Source: Octopus sinensis
Lineage: Eukaryota
NCBI RefSeq assembly: GCF_006345805.1
Contig: NC_043012.1
Span: forward strand, 15,438,001 to 15,502,000
Direction: 5' to 3'
Length of the DNA stretch: 64,000 bases
This document shows positions 3,130 to 4,449 of the stretch, in pieces. The stretch's first letter is position 1; every line of letters begins with the position of its first letter. The notes below the pieces were generated by a model. It saw only the letters and a list, made by a program, of their open reading frames with translations. It ran no database searches and had not been told where the DNA came from. A program made the position numbers and the translations under genes.

Positions 3130-3234
3130 GTATCGCCTGACATCCCAAACCTTTGTCAGCTTTTTCGTTAGGCTCAGTTCTAAAATCAGCCTTTACAACT
3201 TCGACGGATATTTGTCCTCATCTTCTTTGTTGTT

Positions 3235-3280
3235 AACACAATATTTCGGCTGATATACCTTCCAGCCTTCATCAGGTGTC
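3235..3280 (-). ncRNA. Minimal type-I hammerhead ribozyme motif
   Basis: Minus strand: gacac CTGATGA aggctg...cagcc GAAA tat t gtgtt (stem I gacac/gtgtt, stem II ggctg/cagcc). Confidence 0.7.
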
Positions 3281-3456
3281 TTGGGGGAAATTTCGAACCT
3301 GGGTTCTCATTCCTAAGGTATTTTTCGACGTTATTATTACTATTGTTGTTGTTGTTGTTGTTGTTGTTGCTGTTGTTGTTCAGGTCACTGCTTGGAATCG
3401 AACTCGGAATCTTGGGGTTAGTAGCCACTACGCCATATACCGACGGGCAAGCCTAC

Positions 3457-3528
3457 GGGCATATGGCGTAGTGGTCAAGAGCGCTGGCTACTAACCCAAG
3501 ATTCCGAGTTCGATTACAAGCATTGACC
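3457..3528 (+). promoter_or_regulatory. tRNA-like Pol III internal promoter (A and B boxes) heading the cassette
   Basis: A box TGGCGTAGTGG (~3464), B box GAGTTCGATT (3506); acceptor stem is poor, so not a functional tRNA. Confidence 0.65.
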
Positions 3529-3720
3529 TGAACAACAGCAGCAGCAGCAGCAGCAGCAGCAGCAGCAGCAGCAGCAACAACAACAACAACAACAACAACA
3601 ACAACAACAACAACAACAACAACAACAACAACAACAACAACAACAACAACAATAATAATAACAACAATAACATCGAAAAAATACCTTAGAAATGAGAACC
3701 CAGGTTCGAAATTTCCCCAA

Positions 3721-3766
3721 GACATCTGAAGAAGGCTGCAGGGTATATCAGCCGAAACGTTGTGTT
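3721..3766 (+). ncRNA. Minimal type-I hammerhead ribozyme motif
   Basis: gacat CTGAAGA aggctg...cagcc GAAA cgt t gtgtt; palindromic ACGT stem III; predicted cut after GUU (3761). Confidence 0.75.
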
Positions 3767-4449
3767 AACAACAAACAAGATGAGGACAAATATCCGTCTA
3801 ATGTAAATAATGTAAATAATGTACATAATTCCTCATCTCTTAAATATAGAACTTTACAATTTCGCCACCTGTCTTCCTGGGTTTCCCTCATCCCCAAGTT
3901 GAAAAAAACATTCACTGATCAGCACTTCTTTATAGTGCTTGTCTCGTCCTCACACATCACATGTCCATAACAGCGCAGTGTTCTTTCTTGAACATTGCAT
4001 CTGATTCCTCTTATGTCTATTCCTCTTTTTCTCTTAGCACATTTGTACGTCTTTCATGCATATCAATGGAGTATATCAATGGAGCATGTTCATTTAGTTT
4101 ACCCTCAATTTTCTTACGTCTTCTGCGTTCAAGGCACAGGTATCTCTACCATGCAGCATTACAGTAATAAAACAGCAACATGTAGTTTGCCCTTCACTGT
4201 ATGGGAAAAGACTTTTGTTGGCAACACTGCTTGCAGCTCCCAGAGCTTTCTCCGACTCGTTCTCACCCTCGCTAATAAATCGGAGCAACCAACTCCCTTG
4301 CTAATTACATCTCCTAGATAACAGAAGCTATCAACTAGTGAATCACTTGCACTATTTCCAGTGTGCTTCTACGTACAGCTCCAATGCATCTTTTATGTAT
4401 AGAACTTACACTCTCTGGTAATCTACCTGCGATTCTGCTACACGTCTTG

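Follow-up and report, generated by a model that had tools for sequence, protein, structure and literature searches.

A palindrome of two head-to-head Penelope-like element terminal repeats in Octopus sinensis, likely a single insertion primed from both target strands

Introduction

In L1 twin priming, both target strands prime on the element RNA and an inversion results, the two parts of which barely overlap. For Penelope-like elements (PLEs), inverted copies and one-sided tails have already been described, and in the accessible text of Craig et al. tails and inversions are ascribed to endonuclease resolution, while the origin of tandem and inverted PLE structures is listed as an open mechanistic question (PMC8557442). 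The protein of PAc, the PLE of Anolis carolinensis, cleaves both target strands and elongates them, begins copying at two internal positions and can do without cleavage by the hammerhead; in vitro, its start site is alike on both strands (PMC11167929). Dual minimal hammerheads lying on opposite strands 100-700 bp apart can be found in Schistosoma mansoni, where they have also been ascribed to truncated PLEs (PMC4209133).

The locus considered here is a palindrome with two opposed hammerheads in a 64,000-nt stretch of the O. sinensis genome (contig NC_043012.1), the whole of which is called the window below. An earlier note had read it as a coding-free, Pol III-driven, self-cleaving parasite of PLEs. 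The feature itself is real, and the locus is a dead copy of an ordinary kind of PLE insertion. The palindrome is in all likelihood a single decayed insertion of two head-to-head PLE terminal repeats (pLTRs), probably made by priming from both cut target strands at two start sites ~30 nt apart. The observed parts of this account are the unit order, the overlap with the ORF, the target duplication, and the rule that one arm is short and the other tailed.

Architecture of the palindrome

The arms mirror each other around an AA at 3449-3450, as the earlier note had stated; sequence, repeat finding, arm alignment, and motif coordinates all bear this out (Table 1), and complementarity between the arms outside the triplet tracts amounts to 89-91%, far above chance. 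The A and B boxes, the 13-nt deletion in the left head and the triplet tracts were likewise recovered, as were, by motif inspection, the two hammerheads with their stems III (ACGT right, ATAT left) and the predicted right cut. The extent of the element needed correction: it reaches ~3851, with a tail on the right arm only, and the octamer CTTTACAA, which stands at both borders, constitutes an 8-bp target-site duplication around the whole palindrome. We infer that the short-end and long-end zones of the right arm represent a pair of RT start sites.

Table 1. Features of the palindrome and of a second insertion of the same family in the window.
Feature	Position	Strand	Remarks
Left target-site duplication copy, CTTTACAA	3191-3198	+	Overlaps the left arm end by microhomology
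Left arm	3199-3449	-	Inverted pLTR, short end, no tail
Left minimal type-I hammerhead	3235-3280	-	Core intact, stem III ATAT, predicted cut after 3240
Left triplet tract	3330-3380	-	
Left tRNA-like head	3381-3449	-	A box 3435-3425, 13-nt deletion, intact B box from 3405
Right tRNA-like head	3451-3530	+	Begins with a GCCC-NN-GGGC-type hairpin; A box 3464-3474, B box 3506-3517
Right CAG/CAA/AAT triplet tract	3531-3672	+	~140 nt here, family median 31-49 nt
First 54 codons of the PLE ORF	3692-3853	+	Open, overlaps the hammerhead
Right minimal type-I hammerhead	3721-3766	+	Predicted cut after 3761
Short-end zone (to ~3829), then PLE tail to the long end (3851-3853)	3810-3851	+	
Right target-site duplication copy, CTTTACAA	3852-3859	+	
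Second, longer same-family insertion	33916-35297		Inverted pLTR 33916-34230 (-), ORF remnant, then pLTR

The copy is decayed, with ~6% divergence from the family majority, and is probably silent or inert. C61 of the right B box is replaced by A (position 3516), and the ORF start at 3310 in the left arm is frameshifted by one additional C. The hammerhead core positions lie at 3275/3247 (-) on the left and at 3726/3754 (+) on the right. Just left of the duplication, CAGTTCTA at 3175-3182 matches the reverse complement of the long end, probably by chance, since a match of at least 7 nt arises in 8% of random 45-mers.

Other repeats can be found in the window. A SINE-like repeat that contains a microsatellite and is very abundant (118 matches in an 800-kb sample) is present with its 3' part at 2626-2835. 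A unit of 63-67 bp is tandemly arrayed at 7770-7968, 41158-42472, and 51518-51878, where periods of a higher order (126, 193, and 319) also appear, and there are two minisatellites, one at 26913-28771 with 109 copies of a 17-bp unit and one at 62963-64000 with at least 35 copies of a 30-bp unit.

Element family and coding capacity

Each arm is the terminal repeat of an abundant PLE and not a separate coding-free parasite. The link to PLEs drawn in the earlier note holds, as long copies carry an ORF with RT and GIY-YIG domains; its description as coding-free does not, because the arm contains the first 54 codons of this ORF and, in long copies, runs on into it. In near-full copies, the unit is composed of the head, the triplet tract, the ATG, the hammerhead, the tail, the RT and endonuclease ORF, and a short 3' UTR, after which the next head follows. 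The frame from 3692 displays 44% identity over 43 residues to the N-terminus of the full-length PLE protein P0002 (pair E 3e-4), so that each arm is a pLTR with the beginning of the ORF inside it, an arrangement also known from PAc (PMC11167929).

Regarding the catalytic domains, Pfam RVT_1 was recognized in copy L221 (E 3.5e-10), and the GIY-YIG region exhibits a CVY..CSC..YRG motif with 52% identity to P0002 residues 682-837. The endonuclease was not named by Pfam, a PDB sequence search with the endonuclease remnant returned nothing useful, and a metagenome scan with P0002 found no relative. The family combines an RT, a GIY-YIG motif, hammerhead-bearing pLTRs, inverted 5'-truncated copies, and a one-sided tail, as do EN+ PLEs, whose tails measure 30-40 bp. 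The family is a candidate member of the Penelope/Poseidon clade; the CxxC motif of a Neptune-type zinc finger was not seen in the RT-EN linker. Partial tandems of the order UTR-head-hammerhead-ORF occur in four copies (L261, L262, L267, and L268). The second insertion in the window retains a broken RT C-terminus and a GIY-YIG remnant, open at 34588-35079 (+), and its right pLTR has lost the triplet tract and most of the hammerhead.

A genome search with the hammerhead region gave 2,539 candidates. The family is estimated at ~24,000 loci genome-wide (95% range 9,600-49,000) from 7 clear loci in an evenly spaced 800-kb sample, to which an improved reference added two short matches. Exact 20-mers along the unit were counted 896 times in the UTR, 4,938 in the head, 10,133 after the hammerhead, 6,710 in the tail, and 104 in the ORF just past the tail; once these counts are corrected for match rates, about half of the arms carry the tail. 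Mean divergence of the arms from the majority is 5.6%, which translates into roughly 16 million years when the octopus scale given in the accessible text of PMC13282606 is applied. Four near-full-length copies (L233, L234, L236, and L240) on three small contigs and one chromosome are near-identical (98%) and probably duplicated or redundantly assembled.

Head-to-head pairs and target duplications

The palindromic form is not a one-off rearrangement, the outcome that the earlier note had named as fatal to its reading. When loci were taken in genome order by the post-hammerhead 20-mer, an inverted partner was found for 19 of 30 arms, corresponding to 17 of 28 loci after two duplicates were merged by eye; among loci picked by the head, 11 of 24 had one, and 6 of 30 were unclassified. 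Palindrome centres differ widely between loci, and the partner arm may be only as long as the tail.

The 3' ends of the arms form two clusters ~30 nt apart. All fetched loci except the tRNA set yielded 85 distinct head-to-head pairs (only 6 of them from the tail-selected set), 13 of which extend into the ORF. The remaining 72 comprise 68 short+long, 4 short+short and no long+long pairs (p 2e-16 against 1:1 assortment). Strings of at least 8 nt, most often 8-14 nt, are shared by the flanks of 40 out of 67 pairs, the shuffled mean being 2.3 and the maximum 7. The end clusters at 3823 and 3851-3853 recur in contigs from four runs labelled as four organisms. Together, the flanking duplication, the one-of-each end rule, and this recurrence argue that the palindrome is a single insertion event. 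Arms of the same locus are also slightly more alike than shuffled ones (9.5% vs 10.6%, 0/1000), and at a T/A subfamily site they agree in 37 of 42 pairs (p 0.0003); the palindrome locus is among the 5 that disagree. In one pair (L252/L257), both arms reach ~400 nt into the ORF and neither ends at the usual sites.

At ~40% of loci, no second arm was seen. Vestigial second arms in solo copies (5/25 and 2/26) were not convincing, and 10 of 51 solo copies have a target duplication. No empty site was seen; one X17 contig spans the right junction and may be the source.

The tRNA-like head and the question of Pol III

A tRNA-like head with A and B boxes, as recognized in the earlier note, withstands alignment: among 15 distinct tRNAs of the same genome, tRNA-Arg(TCT) matches the head best, with a score of 61 that none of 300 dinucleotide shuffles reaches, and two other stretches of the element gave 33 and 29. 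As neither Rfam nor ARAGORN returned a tRNA match, the likeness rests on this separate test, and Arg-TCT as the donor isotype is uncertain, the set of 15 tRNAs being without some isotypes.

The head is the 5' end of the unit. The sets selected without use of the UTR contain 95 head-bearing arms. Of these, 68 extend to position 16, and 57 of the 68 begin at the head, 46 ending at positions 1-16 and 11 in short hairpin fold-backs; the other 11 continue into the UTR. The ending rate per base is 0.042 at positions 1-16, 0.016 just downstream, and 0.003-0.006 elsewhere. In addition, the 25-nt bin at the UTR-head joint contains 15 indels in 73 arms, compared with 1-5 in each bin of the UTR and 8 in each bin deeper inside the head. 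Pile-up and indels agree with an RNA that begins at the tRNA-like head, but a stall at the hairpin should leave much the same pattern. The terminal hairpin at the head start (L143, L149, L154, L314, and others) displays either loop orientation, flip/flop being 8 vs 37 among typed starts, and the flipped loop could mean that inverted arms are themselves transcribed and copied.

With regard to termination, the majority sense strand of the 2,635-nt unit contains no T4 run and 30 A4 runs. The P-value of this absence is 0.011 under a base shuffle, 0.056 under a synonymous shuffle, and 0.005 with Phe codon use set as in the other pyrimidine-ending pairs, but G4 runs are likewise absent, which weakens the argument. 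T4 runs amount to 0.28 of the composition expectation in the open stretches of copies and to 1.13 in 26 motif-picked other ORFs of the genome, some of which are not LINEs; as the copies all belong to one family, the depletion is suggestive only. Box columns vary slightly less than the rest of the head (4.3% vs 6.1%, not base-matched).

On sequence grounds, the tRNA-derived 5' head and the 2.6-kb sense strand free of T4 suggest Pol III transcription of the whole autonomous element. It can tentatively be proposed, as a possibility somewhat below an even chance, that this PLE has captured a tRNA-derived promoter, is transcribed end to end by Pol III, its 2.5-kb ORF having been purged of T4, and depends for integration on obligatory priming from both strands at one short and one tailed site, with each promoter-bearing pLTR behaving as a built-in SINE. 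If Pol III does transcribe the whole element, a retrotransposon that codes for protein would be driven by a tRNA-type promoter, and PLEs would be linked with tRNA-headed hammerhead elements such as Sm-alpha. An RNA start at the head was not seen in cDNA libraries of a related organism, which cannot show short or uncapped RNAs. The head has no blastn-level sharing with the neighbouring abundant SINE (6 head matches in 800 kb, 5 of them in the PLE family). Searches of the accessible main texts of papers found no autonomous PLE described as having a tRNA head or Pol III transcription, and an existing catalogue may already list the short copies among octopus SINEs.

The parasite family of the earlier note would correspond to a non-autonomous SINE-like family that has its own masters and relies on Pol III for transcription and on the PLE for copying in trans. 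Such a family would account for the ~6:1 excess of head-bearing over UTR-bearing arms, the beginning of 57/68 arms at the head, the presence of both promoter boxes and of the RT start sites inside each pLTR, and the flipped hairpin loop at 8/45 typed starts, expected if inverted arms are transcribed. It is nevertheless improbable. The 81 short and 77 ORF-linked arms have their variants in common at like frequency and differ by no diagnostic site; p<0.02 was obtained at three sites, two of them CpG and the third a repeat-number site. The ORF start is kept in short copies, and centres vary by locus, so that the palindrome is not the replicating unit. As in tRNA-derived SINEs, a head with A and B boxes stands at the 5' end, but a lineage distinct from the partner was not found. 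Trans-copying of scattered solo pLTRs, without masters, is possible.

Proposed insertion by two-strand priming

The strictness of the end rule, together with the extension of both cut strands from two internal sites by PAc, points to priming from both target strands. The RNA would start at the tRNA-like head and would probably be made by Pol III. The GIY-YIG domain would cut the target with a stagger of ~8-14 nt, whereupon synthesis would be primed by one target 3' end at the short site and by the other at the tailed site; the two sites lie a short way past the hammerhead. Both cDNAs would extend toward the RNA 5' end and most would stop at the head, so that only the pLTR would be copied, and the two cDNA ends would then be joined by microhomology or via the self-complementary hairpin at the head start. 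Since copies run through the cut site, the hammerhead would be uncut in the copied RNA. Short copies most likely stem from RT starting at internal sites and reaching the RNA 5' end within 300 nt; their template may be either the full transcript or transcripts of scattered pLTRs, and either one or two RNAs may be used per pair.

The one-of-each rule is left unexplained by the PAc work, in which the start site does not differ between strands. Evidence against the two-strand account comes from solo loci without a clear second arm and from the disagreement at the T/A site in 5 of 42 pairs, and the pile-up at the head could reflect a hairpin stall instead of an RNA end. No report of two-strand priming as the source of PLE inversions was found in the accessible literature. 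Thousands of short duplication-flanked palindromes with a near-strict end rule provide a direct prediction for the existing in vitro system.

Alternatively, a single priming event could be followed by fold-back of the cDNA on the terminal hairpin, by a template switch or by later DNA rearrangement, the tail deriving from endonuclease resolution, which Craig et al. favour (PMC8557442). Short fold-back extensions do occur at the head hairpin in ~11 of 95 arms. This reading is very unlikely, as the target duplication flanks both arms and most inverted arms have a 3' end of the opposite class and a 5' end away from the hairpin, whereas a fold-back copy would repeat the end of the first arm.

Hammerhead and transcripts

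The assignment as minimal type-I hammerhead agrees with the published minimal descriptor (PMC4209133): helix I has 5 bp, an extra base precedes helix II, G10.1-C11.1 is present, helix III is palindromic, and the core reads CUGANGA and GAAA..UH. The Rfam check proposed in the earlier note gave no match at the locus, so the assignment rests on motif inspection against this descriptor. Cleavage as a dimer, also put forward there, is excluded in cis by the opposed orientation of the two ribozymes: one transcript holds a ribozyme and its own antisense, and this duplex (-73.8 kcal/mol) is far more stable than sense-sense pairs (-25.6 to -31.0 kcal/mol).

For stem III, the ATAT and ACGT readings stand, ATAT being ACGT after double CpG decay. 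It occurs in 4/189 arms and double decay at three other CpGs in 0/640, so that selection is possible. The core is intact in 131 of 231 arms and somewhat better kept than matched columns (55 substitutions vs ~83 expected), its sole common variant being at the free N7 position. Because the hammerhead overlaps the ORF, this conservation is confounded with protein constraint.

The defined ~300-nt RNAs envisaged in the earlier note are not expected at this locus, where the first T4 is at ~4026 for the right arm and ~3185 for the left, and both promoters are damaged. When mapped on L268, RNA-seq reads from a related organism do not pile up at the cut site or head start; they are alike on both strands, and their depth roughly tracks copy number. 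The absence of ends at the cut site and the copies that run through it are in line with PAc (PMC11167929). If read through, some ten thousand inverted repeats could supply double-stranded RNA for editing. A host function for the locus, as a source of RNA processed by the ribozyme or of long double-stranded RNA, is hardly credible: a read-through RNA would fold into a long duplex (-379 kcal/mol) and family reads are present in the related organism, but the locus is one of thousands, decays like the rest with damaged promoters, and RNA depth roughly scales with copy number, without any accumulation of reads at the cut site or head.

Comparison with known systems

The octopus family has several traits in common with PAc, Penelope from Drosophila virilis and other PLEs of the Penelope/Poseidon clade: an RT with a C-terminal GIY-YIG domain, a pLTR that overlaps the ORF start and bears a minimal hammerhead, two end points separated by a tail, and inverted 5'-truncated copies (PMC11167929, PMC8557442, PMC4209133). 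The promoters differ, that of Penelope being TATA-less, LINE-like, and internal with a downstream promoter element (PMC2377424), whereas the octopus unit has a tRNA-derived head and no T4 in the sense strand. For the dual hammerheads of S. mansoni, a tRNA head, an end rule, and a target duplication are not described in the accessible text of PMC4209133.

Sm-alpha and Sj-alpha of schistosomes likewise have a tRNA-related Pol III promoter followed by a type-I hammerhead, but they are non-coding, their hammerhead is canonical, and they propagate as tandem repeats (PMC6765202, PMC2770079); the octopus hammerhead is minimal and overlaps the ORF of an autonomous element. Animal non-LTR retrozymes are also pLTR-related hammerhead units, of 150-400 nt, found as head-to-tail tandems with hammerheads on one strand (bioRxiv 10.64898/2026.07.22.740005). 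The octopus palindrome is head-to-head and flanked by a target duplication, and its identity as a non-LTR retrozyme was rejected on this arrangement. Unlike in L1 twin priming, the two arms here usually cover one and the same segment of 100-300 nt and have fixed start sites. With respect to all these systems, inverted copies, one-sided tails, and opposed hammerheads are already known, and the new points of the octopus family are its candidate tRNA-type promoter and its end rule.
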